64,000 nt of DNA from Spirochaetota bacterium (lineage in GTDB: Bacteria; Spirochaetota; UBA4802; UBA5550), in assembly GCA_016929135.1 (NCBI GenBank), contig JAFGJK010000030.1:5531-69530 (forward strand), written 5' to 3'. Shown here piece after piece: positions 3,267 through 29,775 of this stretch; position 1 is the stretch's first letter, and each line of letters begins with the position of its first letter. The notes under the pieces were generated by a model. That model saw only the letters and a program-made list of their open reading frames with translations, was not told where the DNA came from and ran no database searches. Made by a program: the position numbers and the translations under genes.

Positions 3267-3644
3267 TCATGGAACCCGGGGACCCCCCTCGTCGGAGCGC
3301 CCCCCCCCCAGCCTCTCCACCAGCCTTCTCGCCCCCCAGCGGAAAAAGGCAGCGGTATACCTGGCCCCTGCGAGATAGATCCCCACCCAGAAGACCACGT
3401 GGGAGGTCCCGTAGATCGCCGGTCCCCCCACCAGCAGGATACGGGGCTCCGAAAAATAGACGGAGAGGACCCCGAAAAGGGCCACGGCGGGCCACCCGAT
3501 GATATAGCTGATGGCGATCACCACGAGGCCGACGTATACCCTGACACCCGGCTTTTCCCTGAAGGCGCTCAGGTCTGCCCGTTCATTCACCGCTCGCCTT
3601 ACATAGGGGACCTTCATAAGCTGTTGAGCGATTCGTGACTTCAT
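3267..3644 (-). CDS. small hypothetical membrane protein (about 2 TM), divergent from the lyase operon
   Basis: ORF from MKSRIAQQ with hydrophobic segments VYVGLVVIAISYIIGWPAVALFGVLSVYF and LLVGGPAIYGTSHVVFWVGIYLAG. Confidence 0.7.
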   Translation of the reverse strand: MKSRIAQQLMKVPYVRRAVNERADLSAFREKPGVRVYVGLVVIAISYIIGWPAVALFGVLSVYFSEPRILLVGGPAIYGTSHVVFWVGIYLAGARYTAAFFRWGARRLVERLGGGRSDEGGPRVP

Positions 3645-3690
3645 AGCTCGAGTTCTACAGGGAGACCCACAAATCATGCAATAAAAAAAC

Positions 3691-3721
3691 TTGACAAATA
3701 CCCTTTTAAAAAAGGTATAAA
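3691..3721 (+). promoter_or_regulatory. putative sigma70 promoter of the lyase-ketosynthase operon
   Basis: TTGACA (3691-3696) and TATAAA (3716-3721) in an AT-rich intergenic region. The 19-nt spacer is long. Confidence 0.45.
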
Positions 3722-3771
3722 GATTCATTAACCGCGACAGGGGCCGAACCCTGCCCTAGTATGGAAGATCA

Positions 3772-5331
3772 ATGACAGACACCGCCACAGTTACGATCGG
3801 GAGCCGCTCCCTGACCCTGGAAGACCTGCTCAAAATCGCCGAAGGATCCGCCACCGTTTCCATAAGCGGGGAAGGGACGTTCCGGGAACGGATCGAGCGT
3901 TCCAGAAGGCTGCTGGACCGGGCTCTGAAAGAGGGGGTGCCGGTATACGGCGTCACCACCGGTTACGGCAAATCCTGCAGCAAGAGGATGGCCCACGAAG
4001 TGGCGCTGAAAAACGGCGAGAACCTGCTCCGCTTCCACGGGTGCGGAACCGGCGACCCCCTGGGCGTCCCCGAGGTGCGAGCCTCCATGGCCATGAGGCT
4101 CGCCTGCTTCTCCAGGGGATACTCCGGGGTATCGATGGAGCTGCTCTCACAGCTTGCCGCGTTCCTGAACAGCGGGATCACGCCGGTGGTCCCCTCCGAG
4201 GGCTCCGTGGGCGCATCGGGCGACCTCACCCCCATGTCCTATGTCGCCGCAGCCCTGACGGGGGAGCGGGAGGTCTACTACCGCGGATCCAGGATGCCGG
4301 CACGGGAAGCGATGGCACAGGCCGGCATCGAGCCCTATGCGTTCAAGCCCAAGGAACCCATCGCCATGATCAACGGCACCGCCACCATGACCGGAATCGC
4401 GCTTATGGTTATGGAGAGGTCCCGGCGCGTACTGGAGGCGGCGGTGGCGGCGACGGCCCTGAGCATACACGCCATGAGCGGCAACGCGCACCACTATCAC
4501 CAGGCCATATCCGACGCAAAGCCCCACCCGGGCCAGGACCATGTGGCGAAGATGCTGCGAGCATACCTTCATTCGTCGACAAACCAGTGGGAATTCGCGC
4601 AGGGGACCCTTGAGACGCTCCAGGACCCCTACTCGCTGCGCTGCTCGCCCCAGATCCTAGGGGTGCTCCACGACGCCCTGGAATGGATCGGCCGGTGGAT
4701 AGAGATAGAATCAAACAGCGCCAACGACAATCCCCTGATCGATCCTGAAAGCGGCGAGGTGCTCATGGGGGGCAATTTCTACGGCGGGCACATCTCCTTC
4801 GCCATGGACGCACTCAAGTCAGCCCTGGCGTCGGTGGCCGACATGAGCGACCGGCAGGTGGCGCTCATGGTGGACCCCCATACCAACCGAGGCCTCCCGG
4901 CCGACCTGGTGAACACCGGCGAGAAGGAGCGCCCCTACAACCACGGCTTCAAGGCCATGTCAATCGCCTCGTCGGCGCTGGCTGCGGAGGCCCTGAAGCT
5001 CACAATGCCGGCCGCATCCTTTTCCCGGTCCACGGAGTCGCACAACCAGGACAAGGTGAGCATGGGGACCATTGCCGCCCGGGATGCGGACCGGGTCTGC
5101 ACGCTCACCATGAGGGTGCTGGCGATCCACCTGCTCGCGGCGGCACAGGCCTGCGAGATCCGCGGCAGGGCCGATCAGCGCCCCCGCATCAACGACATCT
5201 TACGGCTGATCCGGACTCACGCAGAGCCGCTCGCGACGGACAGGCCCATGGACGCCGACATCGAGCGAATTCTCGGACTTATCGCCGGGGGGATGATGGG
5301 GGAGCACGGGGCGGATGGAAGCGTACGGTAG
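3772..5331 (+). CDS. MIO-dependent aromatic amino-acid ammonia-lyase (HAL/PAL family, FH-type)
   Basis: VYGVTTGYG, MIO-forming GSVGASGDL, QDPYSLRC, NDNP, GGNFYG and HNQDKVSMG. Specificity segment reads NLLRFHG. Confidence 0.93.
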   Translation: MTDTATVTIGSRSLTLEDLLKIAEGSATVSISGEGTFRERIERSRRLLDRALKEGVPVYGVTTGYGKSCSKRMAHEVALKNGENLLRFHGCGTGDPLGVPEVRASMAMRLACFSRGYSGVSMELLSQLAAFLNSGITPVVPSEGSVGASGDLTPMSYVAAALTGEREVYYRGSRMPAREAMAQAGIEPYAFKPKEPIAMINGTATMTGIALMVMERSRRVLEAAVAATALSIHAMSGNAHHYHQAISDAKPHPGQDHVAKMLRAYLHSSTNQWEFAQGTLETLQDPYSLRCSPQILGVLHDALEWIGRWIEIESNSANDNPLIDPESGEVLMGGNFYGGHISFAMDALKSALASVADMSDRQVALMVDPHTNRGLPADLVNTGEKERPYNHGFKAMSIASSALAAEALKLTMPAASFSRSTESHNQDKVSMGTIAARDADRVCTLTMRVLAIHLLAAAQACEIRGRADQRPRINDILRLIRTHAEPLATDRPMDADIERILGLIAGGMMGEHGADGSVR

Positions 5332-5734
5332 ACCCTCGTACGAGGTGACCCTGCAGGTCCAGTTCCACGATCTCGACCCGCTGCAGGTGGTCTGGCACGG
5401 CAACTATTTCAAGTACTTCGAGACCGCCCGGTTCGGGCTCTTCGAGCAGTGCGGCGTGGACCTTCACTCGTATCACCGTGACACGAATTACATATTCCCC
5501 ATCGTGAGGACCTCCACCAAACACCTCTTCCCGCTCAGGCACAGGGACCTGTTCGTCTGCAGGGCCTCTCTCCGCGAGGCGAGATTCAAAATAGTAATGG
5601 ACTTCGAGATACGCCTGGCCGACACTCACCGTGTCTGCACCACCGGCCGGAGCGAGCAGGTGGCGGTGAAGGTGCCCGAGATGGAGATGCAATTTATGAT
5701 ACCCGCGGACATAAGGGAAAAGCTGGAAGCGTGA
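5315..5734 (+). CDS. hotdog-fold acyl-CoA/acyl-ACP thioesterase (4HBT/YbgC-like)
   Basis: Motif FHDLDPLQVVWHGNYFKYFETAR. Overlaps the lyase stop, implying translational coupling. Confidence 0.9.
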   Translation: MEAYGRPSYEVTLQVQFHDLDPLQVVWHGNYFKYFETARFGLFEQCGVDLHSYHRDTNYIFPIVRTSTKHLFPLRHRDLFVCRASLREARFKIVMDFEIRLADTHRVCTTGRSEQVAVKVPEMEMQFMIPADIREKLEA

Positions 5735-5735
5735 C

Positions 5736-7457
5736 ATGCACGAAATGCTGATAAGGGGAATCACCACGGGGCTGGAGCGGATATCCGCCTGGTCCGAGCT
5801 ACTGGACAGGATAAACGTATTCCCGGTAGCTGACGGGGACACCGGGCGCAACCTGAAGATGAGCCTCACGCCGCTTATGATGGCCGGCGGCGTGACGGGG
5901 AGCGTCTCGTACAATCTCCTCCTCTCCGCAAGGGGAAACTCCGGCAACATCGCCACGCAATTCTTTTCCGGGTTCATCACCGCGGAGACAGAGCGTGACA
6001 TCGCCGGCGCCGTGGCGCTGGGGAGGGAACGTGCCTGGAAGGCGGTGAACGCCCCGCGGCAGGGTACGATGCTCACCGTGTTCGACTCCCTCAACGAATT
6101 TTACCGTGGGGAAAAGAACATCTTCCATACCGAGGCCACCGTGAAGCGGATCATCGAAAGGCTCGACGAGGCGGTGAAGTCGACGCCGGACCTCCTGGAG
6201 AAACTGAGGATTGCCGGCGTTGTCGATTCCGGCGCCCTGGGGATGTTCATATTCTTCGAGGGATTCTACTACGGACTCATCGGCCTCGACGAGGATTTCG
6301 TGCCGGTGACCGAACGCTTCGGCGATATGCTCAGCGTAAGGAACGGCTTTTCCGAAAACGGCGAAGAGGGGTACTGCATCGATACGGTGCTGCGCATCGA
6401 CGACAGGAGCGAGGCCGCCCTGAGGGAGATATCGGCATCGGGGGAGAGCGTCATTATCATTCCGGAGGAGCAGTACGTGAAGGTCCACCTGCACGCCAGG
6501 GACAGCGGAGAGGCTCGCCGCCGCCTTGAGGCGCTGGGGAGCGTGGTGAACTGGGCCTCCGATGACCTGGACAGGCAGATACGGGAGTTTGCACACCCCC
6601 TCAGGCGCGGTCCGCTGCACATAATGACCGATGCAGCCGGCTCCATCACCCGAGACGATGCGACCTCCCTGGGGTTCACCCTTCTGGAGAGCTACATCAC
6701 CGTGGACAACCGCGCCCTCCCAGAGACCCAGTTCTCCCCCGAGGAGCTCTACCGGCTCATGCGGTCCGGATCCCGGGCCTCCACCTCGCAGGCGTCGATC
6801 TTCGAGCGCCACCAGTGCTATGCCAGTGTCATGAGCCAGTACGAGCGGGTTCTCTACCTCTGCGTCGGTTCGATCTTCACCGGAAACTGGCAGGTGGCCA
6901 CCCGGTGGAAGGAGGAGCACGACCGCGACGGCCGCCTCACCGTGATCGACACCGGCACGGCCTCCGGCAGGTTGGGGGTACTGGCCATCGCCGCAGCGCG
7001 CCACGCGGCGGATGCCCCGTCGGCCGAAGAGGCGATCGATTACGCCCTCCGGGCAAACCGCCTCTGCGACGAGTACATCTTCATCGACAAGCTCCAGTAT
7101 CTCGCTACCGGCGGCAGGCTCTCCAAGACCAGCGCCTTTTTCGGTGACATGCTCCACATGAAACCGGTCATCACGCCGCTCCCGGACGGGGCGAAGAAGG
7201 TTGCCGTGGTCAGGAAGGGACCAGACCAGATCCGCTACGCCATGGACAGGATGACGGAGATCCTCAAGGGGGACCCCTCCCCCTTCATCATGCTGCAATA
7301 CAGCGACAACAGGGACTGGGTGCGCGAGACCGTGCAGGGGGAGGTGCGCTCCCTCTTCCCGGGGGCGGAGATTCTGCTCCAGCCGCTCTCGCTCACCACC
7401 GGGGTTCACACGGGGCCCGGTACCTGGGCCGTGGCGTTTTTGCCCGGACACATCTAA
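5736..7457 (+). CDS. DAK2 (FakA-like) plus DegV (FakB-like) fusion protein
   Basis: N-terminal INVFPVADGDTGRN, ARGNSG, GTMLTV and VVDSGA; middle GYCID...VKVHLH; C-terminal DegV motifs IMTDAAG, VIDTGTAS, GGRLSK and HTGPG. Confidence 0.88.
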   Translation: MHEMLIRGITTGLERISAWSELLDRINVFPVADGDTGRNLKMSLTPLMMAGGVTGSVSYNLLLSARGNSGNIATQFFSGFITAETERDIAGAVALGRERAWKAVNAPRQGTMLTVFDSLNEFYRGEKNIFHTEATVKRIIERLDEAVKSTPDLLEKLRIAGVVDSGALGMFIFFEGFYYGLIGLDEDFVPVTERFGDMLSVRNGFSENGEEGYCIDTVLRIDDRSEAALREISASGESVIIIPEEQYVKVHLHARDSGEARRRLEALGSVVNWASDDLDRQIREFAHPLRRGPLHIMTDAAGSITRDDATSLGFTLLESYITVDNRALPETQFSPEELYRLMRSGSRASTSQASIFERHQCYASVMSQYERVLYLCVGSIFTGNWQVATRWKEEHDRDGRLTVIDTGTASGRLGVLAIAAARHAADAPSAEEAIDYALRANRLCDEYIFIDKLQYLATGGRLSKTSAFFGDMLHMKPVITPLPDGAKKVAVVRKGPDQIRYAMDRMTEILKGDPSPFIMLQYSDNRDWVRETVQGEVRSLFPGAEILLQPLSLTTGVHTGPGTWAVAFLPGHI

Positions 7458-7475
7458 GCACAGGGGGCGTACACC

Positions 7476-8708
7476 ATGAGCGACGGGAGAAGGGTTGTGG
7501 TTACCGGCATCGGTCTGAGATCGCCGATCGGGCATACCATGGGGGAGCTCAAATCCTCCCTGAAGGCCGGGGTCACCGGCATCAGGAGCGTCGACGAGTG
7601 GAAGAGCATCGAGAACATGCGCACCCTGGTGGCCGGCCTCTGCAGGGACATCGACGAATCGGCGATCCCCCGCCAGTACCGGCGCACCATGGGGCGGGTG
7701 GGAATCCTCTCGGCCCTCTCGGCGATCGACGCGGTGAGGGACTCTGGCCTCTCGGAAGAGACGACATCATCGGACCGCTGCGGCGTCTCCTACGGCTCCA
7801 CCCAGGGGAGTTCCACATCCCTGGAGGAGTTCGTGAAAAAGGTCTTCAGCACCAGAAGCCTCAAGGGGATGCAGTCCTCGTCCTACCTCCAGTTCATGAG
7901 CCATACCTGCGCCGCCAACCTGGCGATGATGTTCCAGTCGAAGGGTCCCGTGGTGGCCTCCTGCACCGCCTGCGTCTCTGGGTCCCAGGGGATCGGTTTC
8001 GGATACGACGCCATACGGAGCGGCCGCGCCGAGGTGATGATCACCGGCGGCGCCGAGGAGATGCACTTCATGCACTCCGGGGTCTTCGACATCATGCGGG
8101 CCACCTCGACGAGGTTCAACGACAGGCCTGAGGCCACGCCGCGCCCCTTCGACGCGGAGCGCGACGGCCTCGTGGTGGGCGAGGGGGGCGGCTGTCTGGT
8201 CCTTGAGGATTATGACCATGCCAGGAAGCGGGGCGCCCGTCTCTACGCCGAAATACTGGGCTTCGGCACCAACTGCGACGGCTCGCACCTCACCAACCCC
8301 AGCGCCGCGGGGATGGCCGGCGCGATGAGGATCGCCCTGGCAGACGCCGGTATCCCGGCCGACGCCATCGGGCATGTGAACGCCCACGCCACCGCCACCG
8401 AGGCCGGCGACATCGCCGAGTCCTCGGCGACGTACGATATATTCCGAGACGCCGCTCCGGTGAGCGCCTTCAAGGGGTACATGGGCCACACCCTTGGGGC
8501 ATGCGGCGCCATCGAATCGATCATCACCATTCTCATGATGCGGGATGGATTCATCGCGCCCACTAGGAATCTGGAGACGCCGGACCCGCGGTGCGCGCCG
8601 GTGCGGCACGTCCTCAAGGACACGATCGAGAGCTCCTTCACCAAGGGGATGAACAACAACTTCGCCTTCGGCGGCATCAACACCTCTCTCATCTTCGGGC
8701 TGGTCTAA
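7476..8708 (+). CDS. beta-ketoacyl-ACP synthase (FabF/ApeR-like)
   Basis: Cys-His-His triad in TACVSGSQ, NAHATAT and KGYMGHTLGA; C-terminal NNFAFGGINTSLIF. Confidence 0.93.
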   Translation: MSDGRRVVVTGIGLRSPIGHTMGELKSSLKAGVTGIRSVDEWKSIENMRTLVAGLCRDIDESAIPRQYRRTMGRVGILSALSAIDAVRDSGLSEETTSSDRCGVSYGSTQGSSTSLEEFVKKVFSTRSLKGMQSSSYLQFMSHTCAANLAMMFQSKGPVVASCTACVSGSQGIGFGYDAIRSGRAEVMITGGAEEMHFMHSGVFDIMRATSTRFNDRPEATPRPFDAERDGLVVGEGGGCLVLEDYDHARKRGARLYAEILGFGTNCDGSHLTNPSAAGMAGAMRIALADAGIPADAIGHVNAHATATEAGDIAESSATYDIFRDAAPVSAFKGYMGHTLGACGAIESIITILMMRDGFIAPTRNLETPDPRCAPVRHVLKDTIESSFTKGMNNNFAFGGINTSLIFGLV

Positions 8709-8710
8709 AG

Positions 8711-9463
8711 GTGGCGGCGCGGGACGAGTCAACCGGCCGCTTTGCCGTGGTGATCCCCCTCTACAATCACGAGGCGAGGATCGCCGACGTGGTGGCATCC
8801 GCCAAGTCGCTGGGGTACCCGGTGATCGTGGTTGACGACGGCTCCACCGACGCCTCCCCCTCGCGGATCGCCGATATCGAAGGGATCACGCTGCTGCGCC
8901 ACGAGGCGAACATGGGGAAGGGGGCGGCGCTGAAGACAGGGTTCCGCGAGGCGGCAACAATCGCGGACTGGGCCATCACCATCGACGCGGACGGCCAGCA
9001 CGACCCGGAGGACGCGAAATCGCTCATCGCCGCGATCCCCCCGGGCACGCGCCCCATCGTGCTGGGAGTGCGCCAGCAGATGGCGGGGAAGGACGTCCCC
9101 TGGACAAGCCGCTTCGGCAGGGGGTTTTCCAATTTCTGGGTGCGGATGTCGGGAGGCGGGAAGGTCAGCGATTCCCAAAGCGGGTTCAGGATCTACCCGC
9201 TCCCGGAGGCGCTGTGTCTGGGCGCCGTTGCCGACCGCTTCCAGTTCGAGGTGGAGGTGCTGGCCAGGGCGGGATGGAACCGGCTCCCGGTGGTGGAGGC
9301 GCCGGTGAGCGTGAGCTACCGGCCCGGGACCGTGAGGATCTCCCACTTCCGCCCCTTCGTGGATTTCCTGAGGAACTCCTCCGTATTCGCCAGACTCATT
9401 ACCGCCAGGATATTCATCCCGCGGATGTTCCGCCGGAGATTGCTGAACCCTCGGATCCAGTAG
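8711..9463 (+). CDS. glycosyltransferase family 2
   Basis: Motifs VVIPLYNH, VVDDGSTD, NMGKGAAL, TIDADGQH, DSQSGFRIYP and RISHFRPFVDF. GTG start 2 nt after the ketosynthase stop. Confidence 0.92.
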   Translation: MAARDESTGRFAVVIPLYNHEARIADVVASAKSLGYPVIVVDDGSTDASPSRIADIEGITLLRHEANMGKGAALKTGFREAATIADWAITIDADGQHDPEDAKSLIAAIPPGTRPIVLGVRQQMAGKDVPWTSRFGRGFSNFWVRMSGGGKVSDSQSGFRIYPLPEALCLGAVADRFQFEVEVLARAGWNRLPVVEAPVSVSYRPGTVRISHFRPFVDFLRNSSVFARLITARIFIPRMFRRRLLNPRIQ

Positions 9464-9484
9464 ATTCAGGATCGAGCGGCTGCC

Positions 9485-10861
9485 TCAGCGGTCCATTCCC
9501 AGGAGCATCGCCAGGAGCTTGTTGGCCCTGCCGGCGAGGTCGTCGCTGATCGCCGAGGTCTTCTCCACCATCCCGGTGTTCTCCTGGGTCGCGGAATCGA
9601 TCTGTACCAGGGTCGAGTTGATCTGTTCGATGCCGATCCGCTGCTCGTTGCTCTTCTCCGCGATTCCCGCCACGAGGTCGCTCACCGAGCTGACCGATTT
9701 CCGTATGTTTTGAATGACATCACCGCTCCCGGCCACCAGGGCTGTCCCCCGCTCGATCTTCTCGCTGCTCTGCTTTATGAGCTCGCCGATCTCACGCGCC
9801 GATTCGGCCGAGCGTCTCGCCAGGTTTCTCACCTCGCTGGCAACCACCGCGAAGCCCCTGCCCCGGTCCCCCGCGTGGGCCGCCTCCACCGCCGCATTCA
9901 GGGCCAGGAGGTTGGTCTGGAAGGATATCTCGTTGATAAGCGAGATGATGCCGGCTATCCTGTCCCCCGACTCCCGTATCTCATCTATGGCCTCCACCGC
10001 ACTCTGCACCAGCCGCACTCCTTCCTCGGCGATCCCGACGGCCTGGACCGCCAGGTCCCTGGCCCGGTGCGTGTTGTCGGAATTCTTACGTATCGCCTCG
10101 GCCGACTCCTCGATGGTGGCGGTGATCTCCTCGAGGGCGCTGGCCTGTTCGGTGGTCCGCTGCGCCAGGGACTGGGTCTCCCCCTTGAGTCGCCCCGACA
10201 GGTCGGCCAGGTCCCGCGACAGGTCCCGCCCCGCGTCGAGGAGCTGCTTCGTCATATCGTGCTCCTTCTCCTTCTCCAGGCTCTCCTCGATCCTGCGGAT
10301 CGAGGCCCTTACGATGGTGAGCAGGAGAAATGCCAGCAGGGTGATGAAGACGCTGGTGATGGAGAAGTAGATCAGCAGCAGCGCCTTGTCGTCTGCCGGA
10401 ACCGCGGCGCGAAGGGTGGTCACCAGCGCCACAAGGAAGTTCAGCAGCGAACTGGCGATGACCGTCCACCGCTCCGTGAATACCGCGGCGATGTTAATGA
10501 ATATGAAAAGGATGATGAGGCGCGATGCCAGGTCGGCAACACCCCTGAAATCCGAGAAGACCAGCTGGACGCCCATGACGGCGATGCATCCGAACACCGC
10601 CAGCTTCGCCCCCAGATGATAGCGCCCCGTGCGGATCAGGAACAGGGCGACGGCGCACAGAATGATAAGGCACACCCGCATGAGATTGCGCCCCGACAGA
10701 GGCGATTCCGGGGAATAGATGTTCATGAGAACGACCACCGCGGAAACGAGGACCAGCGCCGCCATGACGAAATACAGGAATATGCGGGACTGCTGCTGGA
10801 GCATGAAGGATTCGTTTTCGTAGCGAACGAGAAAATACTGCAGTAATCGTTTCATCGGCAT
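9485..10861 (-). CDS. methyl-accepting chemotaxis protein with multi-TM N-terminal sensor
   Basis: Signalling hairpin [37 protein letters not shown]; about 6 hydrophobic helices at the N-terminus. Confidence 0.93.
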
Positions 10862-11346
10862 CACCCTTTCCTCATCAGGATGACTCCCAGTATGCACAGA
10901 TCCGCCACTGTGTCAACACCGATAAAGTGCTAATAGCATAACAATTGTATGATCCTTCACGGTGCCGCTTCGGGATGATAACACCGCATGCGGTACGGGC
11001 ATGAGCCACCAGCCCCCGGGCATTCCGCCGCCATGCTGTGCAGCGAGCAGGCAATGCTGAGGAACGGCCAATTTACAGCAATACCGTGTGAGCCTTCTCC
11101 ATGCCGCAGGTTCTGATATACAGGAAATCCTGCGGCAGAGCGGGTGTGCCGGTCACGTCGCCATGACGCCGCCGATCAATTCCAGCAGGAATATTATACT
11201 CATTAATTGTGTTGGCGAATAGTGAAATACACGGCACAGTCTCTCGATAAATGTTCACACAATATTTTTCGCGGAACGCAGCAGCCCCGGAACCTGTCCA
11301 AGAGAGGATGACGAAAAGAGCGAATACCATGCACACGGAGCTGTAT

Positions 11347-11793
11347 ATGATAAGATTTTTGATCTCATTGACGATCTTCGGTGTGACGGCGGCATTCAGC
11401 GCGATCGCCGCATCCACCGTCGTCAGTTTTCTCTTCGAGGCGCGGGTCCGGGCTGCGGGGGAGTACCGACCGGGCGTGAAGAGCATGAGCGCCACCCTGC
11501 AGGTCACGAAGGTACGCAGGAACGTTACCGGCCACAGTCACGATTATTCCATGGCGGAAATGTTAAAATAAGGAAGGGATCTCACGCTCATAGAAGTGGC
11601 GGCGGCAGACGCGGGTCTGATTCGGAAGGACGCCGTGATCGAGGTGTACTACGAACGCGCATCGGGCCTGTACAGGGCGGGAAGCGAGGTGAAGGGTTTC
11701 TCACCAACGCGATTGAAGCTGTACAGGGTTCAGTTTGTACCGGCACACAAGGACCGCCACGTTACTCGCCTGAATTTTGCTACTTCCTTTTAA
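11347..11793 (+). pseudogene. putative secreted protein interrupted by an in-frame TAA (11569-11571)
   Basis: Signal peptide MIRFLISLTIFGVTAAFSAIAAS follows GGAG. ORFs 11251..11571 and 11596..11793 share a frame and are joined by open codons GRDLTLIE. Confidence 0.55.
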
Positions 11794-11855
11794 AAAGCAG
11801 CATGTAGACTGATGGAATCGCCGGTCGCGTCGAGACGAACGGCGCCCCCTCTGTT

Positions 11856-12518: not shown

Positions 12519-12686
12519 GTTCGTCTCCGAATTCAATAGAATTATTGATGCAAAAAAGAATGACACCACAGACGAGATACGCCCCCGGGACCTTGATCAG
12601 AATATTTTCCGAATGGGGAAAATTCCACGAGGCACGTCGGATTGTATCGGTCGCAATACCATGACGGTCCCGCCCTGTGGCGCCGG

Positions 12687-13138: not shown

Positions 13139-13188
13139 GGGGAAAGCACCGACAACATCCCCTCATATTTCAGCAATATTGATGAATA

Positions 13189-17132: not shown

Positions 17133-17457
17133 ATCATTCAATATTAATATGTAGTGAATTCCATGCAACACAATGAGGTGTATCGGCCGCGGCGGATTCA
17201 TCCCCGTGAGCACAATTCACCGACTGCCGGTCCATTGTTCCGATGCAGGCAATAGCCCCCCGAGGGACCTCCTGGATGAGACCGGTCCTTCCACTGGCAT
17301 CGTTGCAATAGATAAGGATTACTCGTGACATGCCCCTCGGGGGGACTGTGGGAGGTGCGGCGTATTCCCCCCGGGTGCCTCCCCTGCAGTAAAAGTTCTT
17401 GTCAAAAAAAGCCCCGTCCCCCGAGAATTGCCCCTATCCGGAGGGCATGGACAGGAC

Positions 17458-20400
17458 ATGGATCGGCAGAAGACCAGGATACGCTGGGATGTGGTTATGG
17501 TCACCATGGCGGTGGTGGGGCTCCTCTTCTTCCTCGGCATGCAGAGGATCCGCATCGACTCGGACATCCTGAACTCCCTCCCCTCCGACGACCCGGTCCT
17601 CGCCGACGCCGCCTACATTTTCCGCAACCACCCGATCCAGGACCAGATCGCCCTTGACATCTCGCTGGAGCAGAGCGATCCCGACGCCCTGGTGGCGGCG
17701 GCGCAGCGGGCAGAGGCCTCCCTGGTGAAGAGCGGCCTCTTTGAGAGCGTTGGCACCTCGGGCATGCAGCGGCTCTTCCCCCTGATGCTGGAGCAGGTGA
17801 TGGAATCGCTGCCGCTCCTGTTCACCCCCCAGGAGCTTGAGCGTCGGGTCTCCCCGCTGCTCCACCGGGGGGAGATAAAAAAGGTACTGGAGAAGCGGAT
17901 GGCCGACCTGGCGAACCTTGAGGGTATCGGCCAGGCGGGGATGATCGCTCGCGATCCCCTGGGCCTCGCCTGGATCGTCCTGTCCAGGCTCTCGGACCTC
18001 TCGCCGGGCGGCGGCGCCACCCTGTACCGGGGACAGCTGCTCACACAGGACGGCAGGAGCCTCCTGATCCTGCTGAAACCGCGGCACTCCGCCACGGACA
18101 CCGATTACGCCAGGAGGATCCAGGCCGCCATCGAAGATGCCCGCCGTGAGATAGCCCGGGGCGCCGGGGGCCGCGCCTTCACCGTGACCGCCGTGGGGGC
18201 CTACCGTGCGGCCCTGGACAACGAGGACATGGCGAAGTCCGACGTGGAGCTCGCCCTCACCATTTCGACGCTGGGCATCGCACTGCTCCTGATCCTCTCC
18301 TTCCCCAGGCCCCTCTTCGGGCTCCTCTCCATGGTCCCCGCCATGGTGGGGACCGTTGGCTCGCTCTTCGTCTATTCGCTCTTCCACGACTCCATATCGA
18401 TCCTTGCCCTGGGATTCGGCGGGGCCGTCGTCTCCATCACCGTGGATCACGGAATCGCCTTCCTCCTGTTCCTGGACCGGAACGAGGCCACCAGCGGCAG
18501 GCAGGCGGCCCACGAGGTCTGGACCGCGGGTCTCTTCGCCACCCTCACCACCATCGGCGCCTTCCTCGCCCTGGTCTTCAGCGGCTTCGAGATACTCTCT
18601 CAGATCGGCCAGTTCACCGCCATGGGGCACGCCTTCTCCTTCATCTTCGCCCATACGGTCTTCCCCATGGCCTTCCCGGCCGTGGCGCCGGCGGCCCGGA
18701 GAAAGGTCCTGCCGGTGCGCCGTGTCGCCCGGTGGATCGGCGCCGACCAGCGGCTCCGCAAGGTTTTCATCGCCCTGGCGCTCTTCTGTGTGATGCTCTT
18801 CTTCTCGAAGCCGGACTTCAGGATCGACATCGGCGCGATGAACTCCGTCACCGCCGAGACACTGGCGGCGGAGAAGACCGTGAGTTCCCACTGGGGGACG
18901 ATCTTCACGAAGGTTTACCTGCTCGTCGAGGGATCGAGCCTGGGGGACCTCCGGGCCAAGGGGGACCGCCTCTGCGCCCTCCTGGAAAGCGACAGGGCCG
19001 GCGGGAGAGTGGCCTCCTTCTTCAACTCATCGATGATCGTCCCCGGCGAAGAGCGGGGGGGTGTCAACGCGAGGGCCTGGAACGACTTCTGGTCGCCGGC
19101 CCGCACCATCCCCCTGAAACGTGACCTGGCATCCGTCTCACGCGAGGTGGGGTTCTCCGCCGGCGCCTTCGATCCCTTCCTTAAATCGCTGAAGTACTCC
19201 GGCACCGTACAGCCGGTGCCGGAGGCGCTGGCCCCGATCCTGGGGATCACCCGGAAGGGCAATCTCTGGCTTCAGACATCCACCGTCACGCTGGGCCCCT
19301 CCTTCAGCCCGGACGGGTTCCACCGGCGCTACTCGCCGCTGGCCAGGATCTTCGATCCCGCCAATTTCTCCAGGAGACTCTCAGAGACGCTCTCCTCCAC
19401 CTTCCTCTGGATGATACTGATCCTGGGCATCGGCGCGGTTCTGCTTCTTCTCATCTTTCTCATGGACCTGACGCTCACCCTCGTCTCGAGCCTCATGGTG
19501 ATCTTCACCTTCGTCTGCACCCTGGGCACCCTGCATCTCCTGGGACGCCCCCTGGACATCCCGAGCCTGATGATCGCCATCATCATCCTGGGGATGGGCA
19601 TCGACTACACCCTGTTCATCGTGAAGGCCTACCAGCGCCATCCCCGGGACACGCGGCAGCCCATCGACATCATGAACCTCGCGGTGCTCCTAGCCTCCAC
19701 CTCCACCATGATCGGCTTCGGCTCCATGGTCCTGGCGCGCCACACGCTCCTGCGCAGCGTGGGTATCGTGTCGCTCACCGCCATCGTCTTTTCCATCGTC
19801 GGGGCGTACATGATACTGCCGCCGCTGCTGCGGCGCCTCTTCCCGCCCCTAGCGCCGGCCACCGCGGGGCTCCAAGCAGGATCCCGGGAGCACCGCCGTC
19901 GGATCATGCGGCGCCTGCGGCACCTGGAGGCCCATCCCCGGCTCTTCGCCTTCTTCAAAATGAAGACCGACCCGATGTTCCGGGAGCTCGGATCGATGGT
20001 GCCGGACCCGAAACGGATCATCGACATCGGCACCGGCTTCGGCGTTCCTGCCCTGTGGCTCCTGGAGCTGTATCCCGAGGCATCGCTCTACGGCATCGAG
20101 CCGGACCATGAGAGGGCGCGCTTCGCCGACATGATGATCGCCGGCCGCGGCTCCATCGCCGCCGGTGCAGCCCCGGAGATGCCGGCGATCCGGGGGGGGG
20201 CTGACACCGCGCTTATGATCGACATGGTGCACCACCTGGACGACGGCGAGCTGAATCTCGCCCTCTCACGCATCCACTCGCTCCTCCTCCCCGGGGGGAG
20301 GATCGTCATCCGCACCACGATCCCCCTGCGGCGCCGCACCTTCCTTCGCAGCATGGAGGAGCTGCGGCTGAGGCTCTCCGGCCGGAGGCCCGCCTATCGC

Positions 20401-20508
20401 TCCCGGGAGGCGCTCTGCCTGAGGCTCCGGCGCCGCGGGTTCAGGGACATCCAGGTGACCCCCTCGGGGACCGGCAGGGAGGAATTCTGGTTCACCGCCA
20501 GGGCATAG
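17458..20508 (+). CDS. MMPL/RND-type lipid exporter fused to a C-terminal class I SAM methyltransferase
   Basis: Two MMPL repeats (ITVDHGI, GMGIDYTLF, STMIGFGSM) followed by IIDIGTGFG and MIDMVHHL methyltransferase motifs. Confidence 0.9.
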   Translation: MDRQKTRIRWDVVMVTMAVVGLLFFLGMQRIRIDSDILNSLPSDDPVLADAAYIFRNHPIQDQIALDISLEQSDPDALVAAAQRAEASLVKSGLFESVGTSGMQRLFPLMLEQVMESLPLLFTPQELERRVSPLLHRGEIKKVLEKRMADLANLEGIGQAGMIARDPLGLAWIVLSRLSDLSPGGGATLYRGQLLTQDGRSLLILLKPRHSATDTDYARRIQAAIEDARREIARGAGGRAFTVTAVGAYRAALDNEDMAKSDVELALTISTLGIALLLILSFPRPLFGLLSMVPAMVGTVGSLFVYSLFHDSISILALGFGGAVVSITVDHGIAFLLFLDRNEATSGRQAAHEVWTAGLFATLTTIGAFLALVFSGFEILSQIGQFTAMGHAFSFIFAHTVFPMAFPAVAPAARRKVLPVRRVARWIGADQRLRKVFIALALFCVMLFFSKPDFRIDIGAMNSVTAETLAAEKTVSSHWGTIFTKVYLLVEGSSLGDLRAKGDRLCALLESDRAGGRVASFFNSSMIVPGEERGGVNARAWNDFWSPARTIPLKRDLASVSREVGFSAGAFDPFLKSLKYSGTVQPVPEALAPILGITRKGNLWLQTSTVTLGPSFSPDGFHRRYSPLARIFDPANFSRRLSETLSSTFLWMILILGIGAVLLLLIFLMDLTLTLVSSLMVIFTFVCTLGTLHLLGRPLDIPSLMIAIIILGMGIDYTLFIVKAYQRHPRDTRQPIDIMNLAVLLASTSTMIGFGSMVLARHTLLRSVGIVSLTAIVFSIVGAYMILPPLLRRLFPPLAPATAGLQAGSREHRRRIMRRLRHLEAHPRLFAFFKMKTDPMFRELGSMVPDPKRIIDIGTGFGVPALWLLELYPEASLYGIEPDHERARFADMMIAGRGSIAAGAAPEMPAIRGGADTALMIDMVHHLDDGELNLALSRIHSLLLPGGRIVIRTTIPLRRRTFLRSMEELRLRLSGRRPAYRSREALCLRLRRRGFRDIQVTPSGTGREEFWFTARA

Positions 20509-20512
20509 CTCC

Positions 20513-21397
20513 ATGGAACGGACGGTCTACAGAACGCTCACCGCGCTCACCAGGATCTTCGGACCCTGGGTGTTCAGGTTTTTCTCCTGGTGGATCGCCA
20601 CCGGGTTTTTCTTCCTCTTCCCGAGGCGTGTGGCCGTCGGCGTGAGGTTCTACCGGGCCCTCTACCCGGCACGGGGGCGCGCATACCACCTGTGGTGCAC
20701 CTGGCGCCAGTACCACAACTTCACCCACGTCTTCCTGGACCGTTTCCTCCTTCACTTCCCCGAGCGGATCAGCTACACCTCCCGCGGGCTGGAGCACCTC
20801 GTCGCCGCATCGAAGAGCGGCAGGGGCGGGATCATACTGATGTCCCACATGGGGAACTGGGAGATCGCGGCACGCCTGCTGCAGGACACGGGAATCCGCC
20901 TGCTCCTGTACATGGGGGCCAGGGACAAGGAACGGATCGAGCGAATCCAGAAGGAGACCCTCTCCGAGAGCGGCATCACCATCATCGCGGTGGAGCAGGA
21001 CCGGGAATCGCCGCTGGACATACTGGAGGGGGTCAGGTTCATCGGCGGCGGCGGATTCGTCTCCATCACCGGCGACCGCCTCTGGAGAAATGAGCAGCGC
21101 GCCGTCCCGGTGCGCTTCATCGGCCGCACCGCCCTGGTCCCCCAGGGACCCCACGCCATGGCCCTCCTGGCGAGGGCCCCCCTGTTCATCTTCTTCATCT
21201 TCCGGACCGGTACCGGCAGCTACCATATCACCTGCTCTGACCCCATCGATGTCGCCGCCGACGGCAGGGCGGGGAAGAGGGCGGCGGTCCGGGAATCGGC
21301 ACAGACCTACGCAGACCACCTGGAGCGGGCGCTCCGTGAGCATCCCACCGAATGGTACCACTTCGAGGAGTTCATCACGGACGCGGAGGAGGAGTGA
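20513..21397 (+). CDS. lipid A lauroyl/LPLAT-family acyltransferase
   Basis: HxxxxE motif SHMGNWE, GDR, FIGRTALVPQGP and C-terminal EHPTEWYHF. Confidence 0.9.
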   Translation: MERTVYRTLTALTRIFGPWVFRFFSWWIATGFFFLFPRRVAVGVRFYRALYPARGRAYHLWCTWRQYHNFTHVFLDRFLLHFPERISYTSRGLEHLVAASKSGRGGIILMSHMGNWEIAARLLQDTGIRLLLYMGARDKERIERIQKETLSESGITIIAVEQDRESPLDILEGVRFIGGGGFVSITGDRLWRNEQRAVPVRFIGRTALVPQGPHAMALLARAPLFIFFIFRTGTGSYHITCSDPIDVAADGRAGKRAAVRESAQTYADHLERALREHPTEWYHFEEFITDAEEE

Positions 21398-21567: not shown

Positions 21568-24500
21568 ATGGATACGGCAACACTGGAAAAACTGATCGCC
21601 GCCTCTCTGGAGCGGCTGCGGCGCATCAACCCATCCGTGGCCGGGAGGCCCGCGGAGGGCCTGTCGCCGCCCCGCCGCACCAGGGGCCACCGGCTCCGGA
21701 AGGTGCTGGTGGCCAACAGGGGGGAGATCGCCAAGCGGTTCTTCCTGGCCCTGCACGAGGAGGGTATTCCCTCGGTGGCCGTGGTGACCGACCCGGACAG
21801 GGGGCAGTCCTGGTATGAGTTCGCCGACGAGGTTGTCTTCATCGGCGAGCACCACCGCTACTCCAGCATCGAGACCGTCATCGCTGCGGCGCGGCTCATC
21901 GGCGCCAACGCCATCTACTCGGGCTACGGATTCCTCTCGGAGAATCCGGAATTCGTCGAGGCCATCAACGCCTCATCGAAGGCCGGCGCCCCCCTCGTCT
22001 TCATAGGCCCGAATCACCGGACCATGCGCACCCTGGGGAACAAGGTGAGGGCCCGGGAGCTCGCCCGGCAGCACGACATACCCCTCTTCGACAGCTCAGG
22101 GATCCTCACGCCGGCGGAGATGGACCGGGCGGAGGAGGAGGCGCGCCGCATCGGCTACCCGGTGATGGTGAAACCGGTCTCAGGGGGCGGCGGCAAGGGG
22201 ATGTACCCGGTCTCCGGCGAAGAGGGGCTTACCTGGGCCGTGCAGTCCTGCGCCAGGATCGGCAGGGATCTCTACGGGAGCGACCTCTTCTACATCGAGA
22301 AATTCATAGAGCAGCCGGTGCACATCGAAGTACAGGTGTTCAACGGCCATGCCATCGGGATACGCAAGTGCGCCGTGCAGCGGCGCAACCAGAAGATCAT
22401 AGAGGAGAGCGGCCACTCGTTTCTCCAGGAGGCCGAGTCCCTTCCGCTCATGGCTGCCGCGGAGACGATGGCGCGCATCTCCGGCTACTGCAGGGGGGGC
22501 GGGGCCGGCACCGTCGAGTTCCTCTTCGACGCCACAACCGGGCGGTTCGGGTTTCTGGAGATGAACACCAGGCTCCAGGTGGAATACGCCGTGACCGACC
22601 AGTCCCTGGGGATCGACCTGGCGAAATGGCAGATACTCTACTTCGACGGCAGGGAGCGCGAGATCATCGGTCTGGAGGCGCTGAAGCGGGGGGAGGTCGA
22701 CAGGGACCATTCCATTGAATGCCGCATCTACGCCGAGGAACCGGAGAACGACTACCTCCCGTCGCCGGGGACCATCGTGGAGATGGACCTCCCCACCTTC
22801 AACGGGATACGGTGCGATTTCGGCTTCGGCGAGGGGGACACGATCCTCCCGATGTACGATCCCCTGGTGGGGAAGATCATCGCCCAGGGGGCCACCAGGA
22901 GCGAGGCGATCATTCGCCTGGAGCGAGCCCTCCAGGAGCTTTACATCAAGGGGATAAAGACGAACATCAGCCAGCTTTTGAGGATCGTCCGGCACCGGGC
23001 CTTCCTCGGGGGCGATTACACCAACAACATCCTCCTGGAACACGCGGACCTCTCCTTCAGGGAGCGCGAGGCAGGCAGCTGCGCCGGCGGGGCCCGCAGG
23101 ATCAAGCACATCATCTTCGGCGCCTTCGCCGAGCACGTGCGTCTGATCCAAAAATCGGTGCGCGATTTCATGATCGTCGCGAACATCGAGGGGTATATCG
23201 AGGCGCCGGTGCTCCCCAGCGTCCCCACCGGCTTCTTCACGGAGCACCGGGGGGCGCGCTGCAGGCTCGATTTTCTGCAGGTGTCGATGGACCGCTTCTA
23301 CGCCTACGTGGACTCGGTATTCAGCGGCACCATCCTCATCGTCTCAATAAACGACCGGAGCGACGATCTGCTCCTCCAGTACGGCAACAGTTCCTACAGG
23401 ATCCGCATCAACCGCCACGGCCCCCTGGTGGACCTGCGGATGAAGGACGAGAAGAACAAGATCGACTATTTCCGCCTCAGGGTGGAGCCCGAGGGGTCCG
23501 CCGGCGGAGGGGACATCGCCACCGTGCTCTCCCCGTTCCAGGGAACCTTTGTCTCCTTCTGCAGCGACCGGCTGAAGCCGGGGGCCCTGGTGAGGAGGGG
23601 GGAGCCCCTGGTGGTACTCTCTTCGATGAAGATGGAATCGGTGATCAGCGCGCCAGAAGACGGGGAGATCATCTCCCTCATCGAGGAGGGTGACGCCTCC
23701 CGCCTGATCCTCACCACCACCAGGGACGGGAGGGTGATTGGCAGGAGTGTCCAGGAGGGGGAGCTGCTCGTCACAATCAGGACCCGCGGCGCCGGTAAAG
23801 CGCGCGCCTCGGCCATCCCCCGGAAAAAACACGCGACTGACCGGAGGGGGGGGAGGACGCTCCCGGAGCAACTGATGCGGGAGGACTGCGAGGCCTGGGC
23901 CTCGAAGAATCCCGGCGCCCACCTGGAGGACCTCATGATGCTCCTCGCCTCGGCCTCCCAGGGGTTCATCAGAGACCAGCGCATCATCGACATGCTCAAG
24001 AGGATACTGAAGAGGATACCTGCCGAGGGGATGCGACGGCGGGTGCCGGAGAGGACCCAGGATGCGCTGGACAGGCTGATACTCCAGTTCACCTGCGTGA
24101 AGCGGGTGTTCTCGCCGGTGCTCTCCGAAAGCGGCCTCACCTACCAGGAGGAGCTGAACCTCCACGTGGAGCGGCGCCGGGACCTGAAGCTCTCCCCCTC
24201 CTTCGAGGAGGTGATGGACATTCTCCGCAACGCCTACGGTCTGTCGCATTGGAGCGGGCGGCCCGAGGTGAAGAAGATGTTCTCCCAGTTCCATCTCTTC
24301 CTCCTGCGCCTCTCGCACCAGTTCTGCATGGAGCACACCGATCTTATACAGAAATCGGTGCAGATGCTCTCCCTGGTCCCCCGGCCCCTCGAGGGGACGC
24401 GCAGAACCCTGGCGATGCTGCTGGAGCAGGAGCAGGCGGAGCGGGACGATACTCTGCTGAAATTCATAAAGCGGACCTTCGCGGAGAAGCTCCAGGGGAT

Positions 24501-28512: not shown

Positions 28513-29775
28513 TCACCGCGCCGTCCGCCCGAAGGTTTTGGCCGCCAGGTCGCGGCGCCGGGGGACGTAGGTGTTATCCGCCTTCTCCCTCTCCACCACG
28601 CGCCGTATCAGCTTGTACATCTTGTACTGCTGCGGCTCATCCCGGTAGAACTCCTCCCAGGCGAAGCTGAAGAGTTCCTGAAGCCGCTCTGGCGCCATGT
28701 GCCTCGGCTGAAAGACCACCTCGCCCGCGTTGTACCTGTCCCAGTCGTAGCTGAGTATCCGCTTCTGCTTCCTCAGGTCATCGAAGGCCTTGGTGTGCGG
28801 GAACGGAGTGAGGACGGTGAACTCCGCCAGGTCAAGCTCTATCTCCAGCAGGAAATCGATGAGACGCCTGATGGAGTCCTCGGTGTGGTCGTCGAGCCCC
28901 AGAAGGATGGTCCCCTCAACCGCTATCCCGTGATCGTGGTACCGCTTAATCCTCTGGCGTATGTAATCGGAGGTGTCGAAGACCGCCTGGTAGACGTACC
29001 AGGCGCCGGCCTGGGCCGCCAGGTCCAGCACCTCCGGCTTGTCCTCGATGGTGTGGCTGCACCATTTCTTCTTGAAGGGTATCATCTCCCGGAAGAGCTC
29101 CATCTCCCAGGCCGTGTCCTGGGCCAGTGAGTTGTCGACGATGAAGAGCCTGTTGTTGTCGATGGTCGCCAGCTCCTCAGCCACGCGATCCATGGGCCTG
29201 GGCCTGAACTCCCTTCCGCCCAGGTATGCCACGGCGCAGGGATAGCAGTTGAAGCGACATCCGCGCGATGCGTGAAAGAGGTCCACCATGCGGATCCCCT
29301 TGTGATAGTAGAGATCCCGCTCGAGGATGCTTCTCCTGGCCGGGCCCACCAGATCCACCGGGGGCCGTGCGGACAGGTAGTTGTACACCTGCTTCAGCGC
29401 CCCGTCCCTGAAATCGGCAAAGACCTCCTCCATCCGCCCCTCGGACTCGCCGAGGAACACCGAGTCGGCGTGCGTCAGGGTCTCCTCTGCGTGGAGCATC
29501 GTGGCGATGCCGCCGAAGATAACCTTCACCCCCCGGCGGCGGTACTCGTCGGCGATCTCCCATCCCCGTCTCACCTGTACGGTGAGCATCATAGATATAC
29601 CCACGAAATCCGCACCGTCGTCGAAATCCAGGGTCTGCAGGTTCTCGTCGACGAAGACCACGTCGACGTAGTCCGGAAGCGATGCAGCCATCACCACCGG
29701 CCCGTGGGGGGGCAGGTTGAACTCTGTCTGCCCCTCCAGCTTTTTCCATTTCGGATATATCAGCTTGAATTTCAT
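28513..29775 (-). CDS. B12-binding-domain radical SAM protein
   Basis: N-terminal cobalamin-binding-like domain (DFVGIS, VIFGGI, VFLGESEG), SRGCRFNCYPC and LTPFPHT; GGAGG RBS. Confidence 0.92.
   Translation of the reverse strand: MKFKLIYPKWKKLEGQTEFNLPPHGPVVMAASLPDYVDVVFVDENLQTLDFDDGADFVGISMMLTVQVRRGWEIADEYRRRGVKVIFGGIATMLHAEETLTHADSVFLGESEGRMEEVFADFRDGALKQVYNYLSARPPVDLVGPARRSILERDLYYHKGIRMVDLFHASRGCRFNCYPCAVAYLGGREFRPRPMDRVAEELATIDNNRLFIVDNSLAQDTAWEMELFREMIPFKKKWCSHTIEDKPEVLDLAAQAGAWYVYQAVFDTSDYIRQRIKRYHDHGIAVEGTILLGLDDHTEDSIRRLIDFLLEIELDLAEFTVLTPFPHTKAFDDLRKQKRILSYDWDRYNAGEVVFQPRHMAPERLQELFSFAWEEFYRDEPQQYKMYKLIRRVVEREKADNTYVPRRRDLAAKTFGRTAR

Follow-up and report, generated by a model that had tools for sequence, protein, structure and literature searches.

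Work on fatty-acid kinase has concerned a salvage system that Gram-positive bacteria assemble from two proteins. Here we describe a candidate single-chain form of this enzyme, encoded at positions 5736..7457 (+) of a 64,000-nucleotide stretch of DNA from a Spirochaetota bacterium (GenBank assembly GCA_016929135.1, contig JAFGJK010000030.1), which we call the window, and the lipid gene cluster to which it belongs. In Staphylococcus aureus, the N-terminal domain of the kinase subunit FakA (FakA_N) binds ADP and two Mg ions via Asn32, Asp38, Asp40, Thr41, Asn82 and Asp185, the middle domain (FakA_L) contributes the catalytic residues Cys240, His282 and His284, and the C-terminal domain (FakA_C) binds the fatty-acid-carrying partner FakB (PMC9136124). 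A FakA_NL protein lacking FakA_C is still an active kinase, with an apparent Km for FakB that is about tenfold higher, and the acyl-phosphate that Fak produces goes to PlsY or, for the synthesis of acyl-acyl carrier protein (acyl-ACP), to PlsX (PMC9136124). In FakB2 of Streptococcus suis, T61, S93 and H264 contact the carboxylate of the fatty acid and R170 is needed for phosphotransfer (PMC10848957). Enterococcus faecalis without plsX offers a related precedent, in which FakAB phosphorylates acids set free by a thioesterase and PlsY consumes the products (PMC10449490).

Aryl-polyene (ape) clusters form the other relevant system and are counted in the literature with the most widespread biosynthetic gene clusters of bacteria (PMC8253772; bioRxiv 10.1101/2020.12.19.423268). 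Their products include a thioesterase (ApeK), an acyltransferase (ApeD), a glycosyltransferase (ApeJ), a transporter (ApeM), a methyltransferase (ApeB) and a ligase (ApeH) (PMC8253772). The aryl-polyene lipid of Xenorhabdus has a diacyl-glycerol-phosphate-GalNAc core, in which the glycerol carries myristate or palmitate plus a conjugated C26:5 acid and the aryl polyene resides on the sugar; the published model takes the lyso-lipid from host metabolism (bioRxiv 10.1101/2020.12.19.423268). In the accounts these sources give, the joining of the pigment acid to its membrane anchor is only a proposal (PMC8253772; bioRxiv 10.1101/2020.12.19.423268). Fusions of Dak2 and DegV domains are likewise on record: a preprint that cites Erni et al. 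2006 for them mentions examples from Chloroflexi and Firmicutes that lie near heliorhodopsin genes, and it assigns them no function or pathway context (bioRxiv 10.1101/2021.02.16.431466).

The open reading frame (ORF) at 5736-7457 begins with ATG and encodes 573 amino acids. An earlier note on this DNA, made from the letters alone, had described one polypeptide with the FakA motif NVFPVADGDTGRN, a GYC...VKVHLH middle region and a full DegV domain, and the Pfam and NCBIfam searches and the translation bear this out, with the motif occupying residues 27-39, GYC residues 212-214 and VKVHLH residues 248-253. Pfam assigns residues 30-178 to Dak2 (E 2.6e-18), residues 212-284 to FakA-like_M (E 1.3e-9) and residues 294-570 to DegV (PF02645; profile positions 2-279 of 280, E 4.6e-42, 144.7 bits vs a cut-off of 27); the E-values for this protein and the other operon proteins are far beyond chance. 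The FakB-docking domain FakA-like_C (PF13684) gave no match to the protein in the Pfam search, and the DegV domain at residues 294-570 stands in its place. Scores against NCBIfam follow the same division. DegV TIGR00762 is matched above its cut-off (157.7 bits vs 99.7), and the scores for YloV TIGR03599 (177.2 bits vs 396.1) and FakA NF038248 (112.6 bits vs 975) fall below theirs because the protein lacks the FakA_C half of these profiles, both of which align over their N-terminal ~300 positions only. Rather than being free-standing (~280 amino acids), the FakB part is joined after residue ~290 of the chain. We conclude that the protein is FakA_NL with FakB tethered at the place of the former FakB-docking domain. 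It is also the only DegV protein detected in its own genome, a metagenome-assembled one that is 81.5% complete and the sole source of information on this organism.

All nine of the S. aureus FakA residues listed above have counterparts in the fusion, as judged from alignments to 7rm7, 8vip and 7w7h, the alignment to the 7rm7 and 8vip chains spanning fusion residues 9-183. Across 31 aligned fused proteins, which are 48-84% identical to the window protein, N27, D33, D35, T36, N68 and D164 of the Dak2 domain are invariant, as are C214, H251 and H253 of the middle domain, which align to the same motifs of 7w7h_A. Within the DegV half, T350, T382, R461 and H558 are invariant in the same 31 proteins and are the probable matches of T61, S93, R170 and H264 of S. 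suis FakB2, a correspondence mapped by alignment offset only (fusion 294-567 vs 7w7h_E 4-273) and one in which the FakB2 Ser position would be Thr. An AlphaFold2 model computed from the 31-sequence alignment has a mean pLDDT of 87.8 and a pTM of 0.89, and the sole stretch with pLDDT <50, residues 457-460, lies beside R461. The modelled C-terminal half fits fatty-acid-bound DegV/FakB structures (2dt8, 4x9x, 7w7h_E, 5uto and others) with TMt values of 0.79-0.86 and a root-mean-square deviation (rmsd) of ~3 Å, 2dt8 giving 0.86, and the modelled N-terminal half fits FakA_N with TMt values of 0.75-0.78 (8vip: TMt 0.78, rmsd 2.5).

Like the Firmicute FakA and FakB of S. aureus and S. suis (7rm7, 8vip, 7w7h, 4x9x, 5woo), the fusion shares the residues that ligand ATP and two Mg ions, has the catalytic Cys and His-x-His of the FakA middle domain, and carries a DegV/EDD domain with Thr, Ser/Thr, Arg and His at what appear to be the offsets expected of FakB. 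Acyl-phosphate formation is the most likely chemistry for the protein, and by analogy with FakA and FakB its product would be an acyl-phosphate for PlsY. Unlike the two-component system, the fusion is one polypeptide with FakB in place of FakA_C, and the loss of FakA_C would be explained by a covalent tether to FakB, which would make a docking domain unnecessary. Nature provides a control in genus g7, where the cluster gene encodes a free DegV protein of 285 amino acids (L023:9627-10484), the free form being found only there. The genus g7 genome also holds, elsewhere, a complete FakA of 531 amino acids (L024:9030-10625), in which FakA-like_C (PF13684) is recognized by the type of Pfam search that gave no such match for the fusion.

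The fusion lies in an operon with the order ammonia-lyase (3772-5331), thioesterase (5315-5734), fusion, ketosynthase (KS; 7476-8708) and family-2 glycosyltransferase (GT2; ~8705-9463). A single base separates the end of the thioesterase ORF (5734) from the ATG of the fusion, and the ATG of the KS at 7476 is 18 bases past the fusion stop at 7457, just as the earlier note had measured. A protein search recovered 4957 proteins at E <= 0.001 among 7999 scored candidates, and the best 120 relatives listed all share the same three Pfam domains in 566-594 amino acids, those with names being called 'DegV family protein'. Gene neighborhoods were compared by tblastn, using cluster proteins of the window and its relatives, for the best 80 of at least 539 loci (one genome per species), and each count below is limited to loci with enough flanking sequence. 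Record titles of these 80 loci name Desulfobacterales/Desulfobacteraceae, Syntrophaceae/Smithella, SAR324 and several 'Spirochaetota' metagenome-assembled genomes, among the last a relative from the same genus as the window.

Immediately upstream of the fusion, the thioesterase is present at 66 of 75 loci. An ammonia-lyase lies upstream at 39 of 70 (absent from 31), and a gene for a B12-binding, radical-SAM-like protein (SAM, S-adenosylmethionine) does so at 34 of 65. Downstream, GT2 occurs within 4.5 kb of the fusion at 59 of 69 loci, and at least one of GT2, an LpxL-type lysophospholipid acyltransferase (LPLAT) and an MMPL-methyltransferase protein is found at every one of the 69. Homologs of the MMPL-methyltransferase and of the LpxL-type acyltransferase reside within 10 kb downstream at 21 and 29 of 41 loci, respectively. 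Where at least 9 kb is available on both sides ('fully flanked' loci, n=33), any ketosynthase is present at 28, the lyase at 24, an adenylating (AMP) ligase at six and PlsY at one. A KS directly after the fusion, as in the window, is rare (1/33 fully flanked loci; 4/10 relatives' loci). Ten relatives' loci annotated with Pfam add ACPs, an ApeI-like dehydratase, a fusion of KS and chain-length factor (KS-CLF), a FabD-type malonyltransferase and AMP ligases, with PlsY in two of the ten; the Pfam families ApeI-like, PP-binding and Ketoacyl-synt_2 are present in L021 and L025. These genes correspond to those for attachment and export in the ape clusters of Escherichia coli and Xenorhabdus, and the fusion is therefore a fixed member of an aryl-polyene-like lipid cluster. 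The earlier note's placement of the gene in a lyase/thioesterase/ketosynthase-type cluster holds up in this sample, in which the homologs are not mostly outside such clusters.

Within its own genome the cluster is spread over three contigs: that of the window and two others, C13 and C103. Contig C13 holds a KS, a fusion of a dehydratase (DH) with a 4'-phosphopantetheinyl transferase (PPTase), PlsY, FabD and an AMP ligase. The DH-PPTase protein (L027:8601-10268 on C13) comprises 555 amino acids with a polyketide synthase-type dehydratase N-domain, is encoded directly before PlsY, and is kept beside PlsY in 10 of 12 PlsY loci. For the AMP ligase, the second-best NCBIfam match is 4-coumarate-CoA ligase (96 bits, below the cut-off), and this enzyme would fit the usual loading of a lyase-made aryl acid. 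By tblastn with relatives' proteins, C103:20782-30048 was found to hold a KS-CLF fusion, an ACP, an ApeI-like dehydratase and another KS. The whole thus resembles the ape clusters of Escherichia coli CFT073 and Xenorhabdus doucetiae in its thioesterase, GT2, LPLAT, RND/MMPL protein, methyltransferase and AMP ligase, and also in the ACPs, KS/CLF and ApeI-like dehydratase of the same genome. A Fak-type kinase, PlsY, an ammonia-lyase, a B12/radical-SAM protein and a giant acetyl-CoA carboxylase are all present here, and ape clusters lack them.

A link to a particular acceptor comes from the distribution of PlsY. In the own genome we found one PlsY and, at 81.5% completeness, no PlsX. Among 41 genomes (own + 40 relatives), the fusion or its split form is present in 11, PlsY is present in exactly the same 11, and PlsX was found in none. 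A PlsB-like protein occurs in 39 of the 41, with or without the cluster; its frames of 860-900 amino acids score ~330-418 bits, which is below the equivalog cut-off, and most matches span the greater part of the model. Extended to the whole order (122 genomes), the survey gives a Fak-type match in 34 genomes and PlsY in 33, all 33 being among the 34, and of its 50 genera 12 are positive for the Fak match and 11 for PlsY. The extra genome (G086, 85% complete) has only a 73-amino-acid Fak fragment (E 1.5e-5). The other Fak-type genomes comprise 28 with a full fusion (one cut by a contig end), one with an N-terminal fragment at a contig end, two with the split form and two of genus g43, in which a FakA-type gene with 27% identity is directly beside PlsY. 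In other lineages, PlsY is present in all five fusion-bearing genomes examined, one of them a 4.78-Mb single-record Smithellaceae chromosome in which fusion and PlsY were found and PlsX was not. No other known source of acyl-phosphate was found in this comparison. Because PlsY and the kinase have near-identical genome sets, while a PlsB-like enzyme occurs in 39 of 41 genomes regardless, the two count as accessory genes that accompany each other and the cluster. Ordinary lipid synthesis in these organisms is probably served by that PlsB-type enzyme.

The PlsY proteins in question form a recognizable subtype. The copy from the own genome (L027:10306-10890, on C13) has counterparts at L018, L022, L048, L065, L083 and L109-L120, and those accompanying the fusion are 45-67% identical to it. 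Such cluster-type PlsY genes lie among cluster-type lipid genes at 12 of 12 loci; at 11 of these the neighbors are KS, DH-PPTase, FabD and/or AMP ligase, and the remaining one (SAR324 locus L119) has PlsY within the main cluster, with LPLAT, MMPL, GT2 and the fusion as its neighbors. In the SAR324-type locus L048/L119 these five genes form a contiguous set. None of the neighbors named is present at two housekeeping-type PlsY copies, which are 30-32% identical. Structural work on Aquifex PlsY (5xj5) has defined a glycerol-3-phosphate clamp and shown the acyl-phosphate to be held by the side chains of His92 and Thr41 (PMC5700162). Relative to 5xj5, all 18 cluster-type proteins keep the Ser35, Arg45, Lys104 and Asn180 clamp, His177, Asn37 and the Gly-Gly-Lys-Gly loop. 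The acyl-phosphate side is different, as discussed below, and the cluster-type proteins appear to have a rearranged donor site.

Domain content, conserved catalytic residues, a fixed neighborhood and a phyletic tie to PlsY without PlsX lead us to propose, with a probability of about 0.62, that the thioesterase, the fused kinase and the cluster PlsY act in series by way of an acyl-phosphate to supply 1-acyl-glycerol-3-phosphate for an aryl-polyene-type lipid. Release of an acyl chain from one of the cluster's carrier proteins would fall to the neighboring 4HBT thioesterase, the translation of which is probably coupled to that of the kinase. The free acid would then be captured by the tethered DegV domain, and the Dak2 domain would phosphorylate its carboxylate with ATP, whereupon the cluster PlsY would use the acyl-phosphate to acylate glycerol-3-phosphate at sn-1. 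A second chain may be added by the LpxL-type acyltransferase, a sugar and possibly also the aryl polyene by GT2, and the product, expected to be an aryl-polyene-lipid-like glycerophospholipid, may be exported by the MMPL-methyltransferase. In this proposal the kinase activity and the transfer to PlsY are our inferences, as is the nature of the acid; it may be a plain saturated chain, like the one that the Xenorhabdus lipid has at sn-1, or a polyene chain made by the cluster. The earlier note had raised the option that a thioesterase-released acid is phosphorylated for the acyltransferase. That option is close to the reading we favor, but the acceptor would be PlsY, encoded outside the window, and not the KS or the LpxL-type acyltransferase.

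Several observations weigh against this proposal. One lies in PlsY itself: the position of His92 is Asn in 18 of 18 cluster-type proteins, with a His six residues later (Asn92/His98), and the two housekeeping-type copies retain His92. Similarly, the Thr41 position is Thr in 14 of the 18 and Val in the other four, and this PlsY subtype scores 94.3 bits against TIGR00023, below the cut-off of 137.2. Because the acyl-phosphate site is divergent, the donor used by this PlsY could differ, and this is the main limit on our confidence that acyl-phosphate is the donor. Linkage is also loose. PlsY is adjacent to the fusion at one of 33 fully flanked loci and at two of the 41 with a full downstream flank, and is usually tens of kilobases away or on another contig, as with C13 here. 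The co-occurrence may only reflect the membership of both genes in one mobile cluster, and since the genomes are related, the score of 33/33 overstates independence. What the phyletic pattern implies is membership in one system; the direct link between kinase and PlsY comes from biochemical logic. Two of the five fusion-bearing genomes outside the order do contain PlsX, absences in the own genome are weak evidence because it is 81.5% complete, and in genus g8 a TrmO_N/UPF0158 protein occupies the slot of the thioesterase next to the fusion.

Four other explanations deserve consideration. The fusion might simply scavenge in a housekeeping style, recycling ordinary free fatty acids into membrane phospholipid via PlsY, with its position in the cluster carrying no meaning specific to the pathway. 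In its favor, the DegV domain is similar to FakB proteins whose ligands are C14-C18 acids. No second DegV turned up in the genome, and as PlsX was not found, a PlsY would rely on the fusion. The known aryl-polyene lipid, too, carries ordinary myristate or palmitate at sn-1 (bioRxiv 10.1101/2020.12.19.423268). We nevertheless regard this explanation as unlikely, though it is the foremost of the four, since the cluster context is seen at 69 of 69 loci and the accompanying PlsY is a distinct subtype residing among cluster-type lipid genes at 12 of 12. Moreover, 88 of the order's 122 genomes lack both the fusion and PlsY despite a widespread PlsB-like enzyme (39/41), and therefore both appear dispensable for ordinary membranes. 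Another view is that the protein is a non-catalytic carrier whose DegV domain shuttles or senses lipid while the Dak2 half is degenerate or regulatory, such that no acyl-phosphate is made. Many DegV proteins lack a demonstrated kinase partner, and the fusion does fall below the FakA and YloV equivalog cut-offs. Those low scores follow from the absent FakA_C half, though, and every FakA_N and FakA_L residue supported by mutagenesis is invariant across 31 members spanning 48-84% identity, as are the positions of the DegV half that would contact the carboxylate, which makes loss of catalysis highly improbable.

The explanation that the earlier note had put forward concerns a different acid: the kinase would phosphorylate a lyase-derived aryl acid (coumarate or cinnamate), and the aryl-phosphate would prime the KS, replacing the adenylating ligase that activates the starter in characterized aryl-polyene systems. 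The window itself offers some points in its favor. The operon opens with the lyase, whose product is a free acid, the KS begins 18 bases after the fusion, and no AMP ligase is encoded within the 64 kb. The wider comparison renders it very improbable. An AMP ligase resides on C13 beside PlsY and FabD, with 4-coumarate-CoA ligase as its second-best match; the lyase is often missing, being absent from 31 of the 70 loci that keep the fusion; the direct succession of fusion and KS is particular to the lineage of the window (1/33 fully flanked loci); and the tie to PlsY points to another acceptor. We know of no ketosynthase or ACP-loading enzyme that takes acyl-phosphate. The corollary that fusion and AMP ligase should be mutually exclusive does not survive either, as ligases accompany the fusion in L018, L020, L022 and L025 and at six of the 33 fully flanked loci. 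Finally, the acyl-phosphate might serve a flexirubin-type esterification, in which the polyene acid is joined to a dialkylresorcinol or other alcohol rather than to glycerol-3-phosphate. To our knowledge, the enzyme that forms the ester bond of flexirubin has not been identified. Against it, the own genome, at 81.5% completeness, has no DarB, the only match being the KS itself with 19.8 bits vs a cut-off of 550, and the tie to PlsY would be left unexplained. We consider this explanation about as remote as that of a non-catalytic carrier.

A narrower version of the proposal we favor is that the fused kinase acts on a conjugated polyene or aryl-polyene acid made by the cluster rather than on an ordinary fatty acid, and that thioesterase, kinase and the PlsY with the His92-to-Asn change constitute a dedicated off-loading relay. 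Through it, a polyketide-like chain would leave its carrier protein and end up on sn-1 of glycerol-3-phosphate. We advance this version tentatively, as a possibility that is appreciably less probable than the general scheme.

The other genes around the fusion have the following features. The first gene of the operon (3772..5331, +) encodes an aromatic amino-acid ammonia-lyase of the HAL/TAL type (Pfam Lyase_aromatic, E 8.9e-163) that falls under the cut-off for every NCBIfam equivalog, including HutH, the BagA/FevW tyrosine ammonia-lyase (TAL) and flexirubin FlxA. The product of 5315..5734 (+) is a 4HBT/YbgC-type thioesterase in the ApeK position (Pfam 4HBT_2 and 4HBT; NCBIfam YbgC/FadM subfamily, below cut-off), and that of 7476..8708 (+) is a beta-ketoacyl-ACP synthase of the PRK09116 type (Pfam ketoacyl-synt N and C; NF006587, 455.5 bits vs a cut-off of 470). 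GT2, in the ApeJ position (8705..9463, +; Pfam Glycos_transf_2, E 1.6e-22), has an uncertain start codon, its frame being open from 8591. Divergent from the operon, 3267..3728 (-) encodes a small membrane protein with hydrophobic stretches and a probable start at 3644; it has no Pfam or NCBIfam match, and a homolog takes the same divergent position at eight of ten relatives' loci. By eye, a TTGACA ... TATAAA pair with a 19-base spacer is evident at 3691-3721; it precedes the lyase start by ~50 bases and falls in the intergenic region that the lyase shares with the divergent small membrane-protein gene. One relative has an inserted HicB/HicA toxin-antitoxin pair (L020:9033-9469) a short way upstream of its thioesterase and kinase genes. 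The protein in the thioesterase's slot in genus g8 has 357 amino acids with TrmO_N and UPF0158 (L017:11033-12106, -), and a matching gap is seen in L052, L061, L066, L071, L082 and L100.

Farther downstream, 17428..20508 (+) encodes a 1026-amino-acid MMPL/RND-type exporter with a C-terminal SAM methyltransferase, covering the ApeM and ApeB positions (Pfam MMPL and Methyltransf_23/25/11); the same fusion also follows GT2 in L018, L021 and L022. It is succeeded by an LpxL/PIM-type lysophospholipid acyltransferase in the ApeD position (20513..21397, +; Pfam Lip_A_acyltrans, best NCBIfam match PIM acyltransferase, below cut-off) and by a giant acetyl-CoA-carboxylase-like fusion of 1951 amino acids with biotin carboxylase, biotin carrier and carboxyltransferase domains (21568..27423, +). 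Homologs of the giant carboxylase with 64-67% identity lie 3.5-10 kb downstream of the kinase fusion in the 'Spirochaetota'-titled loci L052, L061, L071 and L100, and L066 has a more divergent copy (48% identical). The B12-binding, radical-SAM-like protein (28513..29775, -; Pfam B12-binding) is the most conserved companion in the cluster, with 67-76% identical copies in most of the 80 loci, across which the other cluster proteins are about 50-65% identical. Its NCBIfam matches, to B12/radical-SAM lipid enzymes, are weak and include 'ladderane-type' TIGR04072 and the hopanoid methylase HpnR.

Between GT2 and the MMPL gene lies a 7.8-kb stretch (9485-17300) of lower GC (0.45-0.58, compared with 0.63-0.66 for the cluster genes) that holds a methyl-accepting chemotaxis protein (MCP), a DUF975 protein, two ORFs without a family and an extracytoplasmic function (ECF) sigma factor. 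At many related loci (e.g., L021, L022, L053, L072) the MMPL gene follows GT2 by ~1 kb or less. We found no convincing terminal repeats flanking this stretch, and the sole tRNA found around it is tRNA-Gln at 2026-2099. A listing of RNA data gives no entry for 3700-9500. Two RNA libraries of the same study contain one identical 151-nucleotide contig that maps to 3788-3938 in the lyase gene, for which DNA carry-over is possible, and otherwise pieces with partial matches of 18-42 nucleotides and loose ends. None of the library contigs fits the fusion gene, and these data argue neither for nor against transcription.

In a 301-genome sample of the phylum, the fused form was found only in the order of the window (16 fused, 2 split), and the other 27 matches are of the FakA type and 24-33% identical. 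This restriction to one order, the closest proteins elsewhere being in records titled Desulfobacterales, Syntrophaceae/Smithella and SAR324, and the raised GC of the cluster genes suggest that the cluster moved horizontally between phyla.

Although the Dak2-DegV architecture was already known, a full-text search that largely left subscription journals outside found no literature linking a Dak2-DegV fusion to aryl-polyene clusters or to PlsY, nor any that brings aryl polyenes together with DegV, PlsY or fatty-acid kinase. What we add are the order-wide counts of PlsY, PlsX and PlsB, the natural control with free DegV and full FakA, the PlsY module and its Asn92/His98 signature. Unlike the Firmicute Fak systems that salvage exogenous fatty acids, the fusion occurs in diderm anaerobes, in a specialized lipid cluster and beside a thioesterase. 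The proposed logic, passing from acyl-ACP via a thioesterase to free acid, and via Fak to acyl-phosphate and PlsY, would parallel the bypass in E. faecalis as described in PMC10449490. The route in E. faecalis is a laboratory suppressor for bulk phospholipid, whereas the one here appears native and hard-wired, belongs to an accessory cluster and involves an Asn-type PlsY. Unlike the Xenorhabdus model, these lineages seem to bring their own route to the lyso-lipid.

This family would give a natural single-chain form of fatty-acid kinase, and with it an indication of which FakA domain is dispensable once FakB is tethered. It would extend fatty-acid kinase to specialized lipid assembly and add a partner PlsY subtype with a rearranged acyl-phosphate site, and the single-chain enzyme could be a convenient tool for making acyl-phosphates. 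If the dedicated relay is true, it would be the first Fak/PlsY system in specialized metabolism and in diderm bacteria, and would answer how aryl-polyene-type lipids get their glycerolipid anchor.

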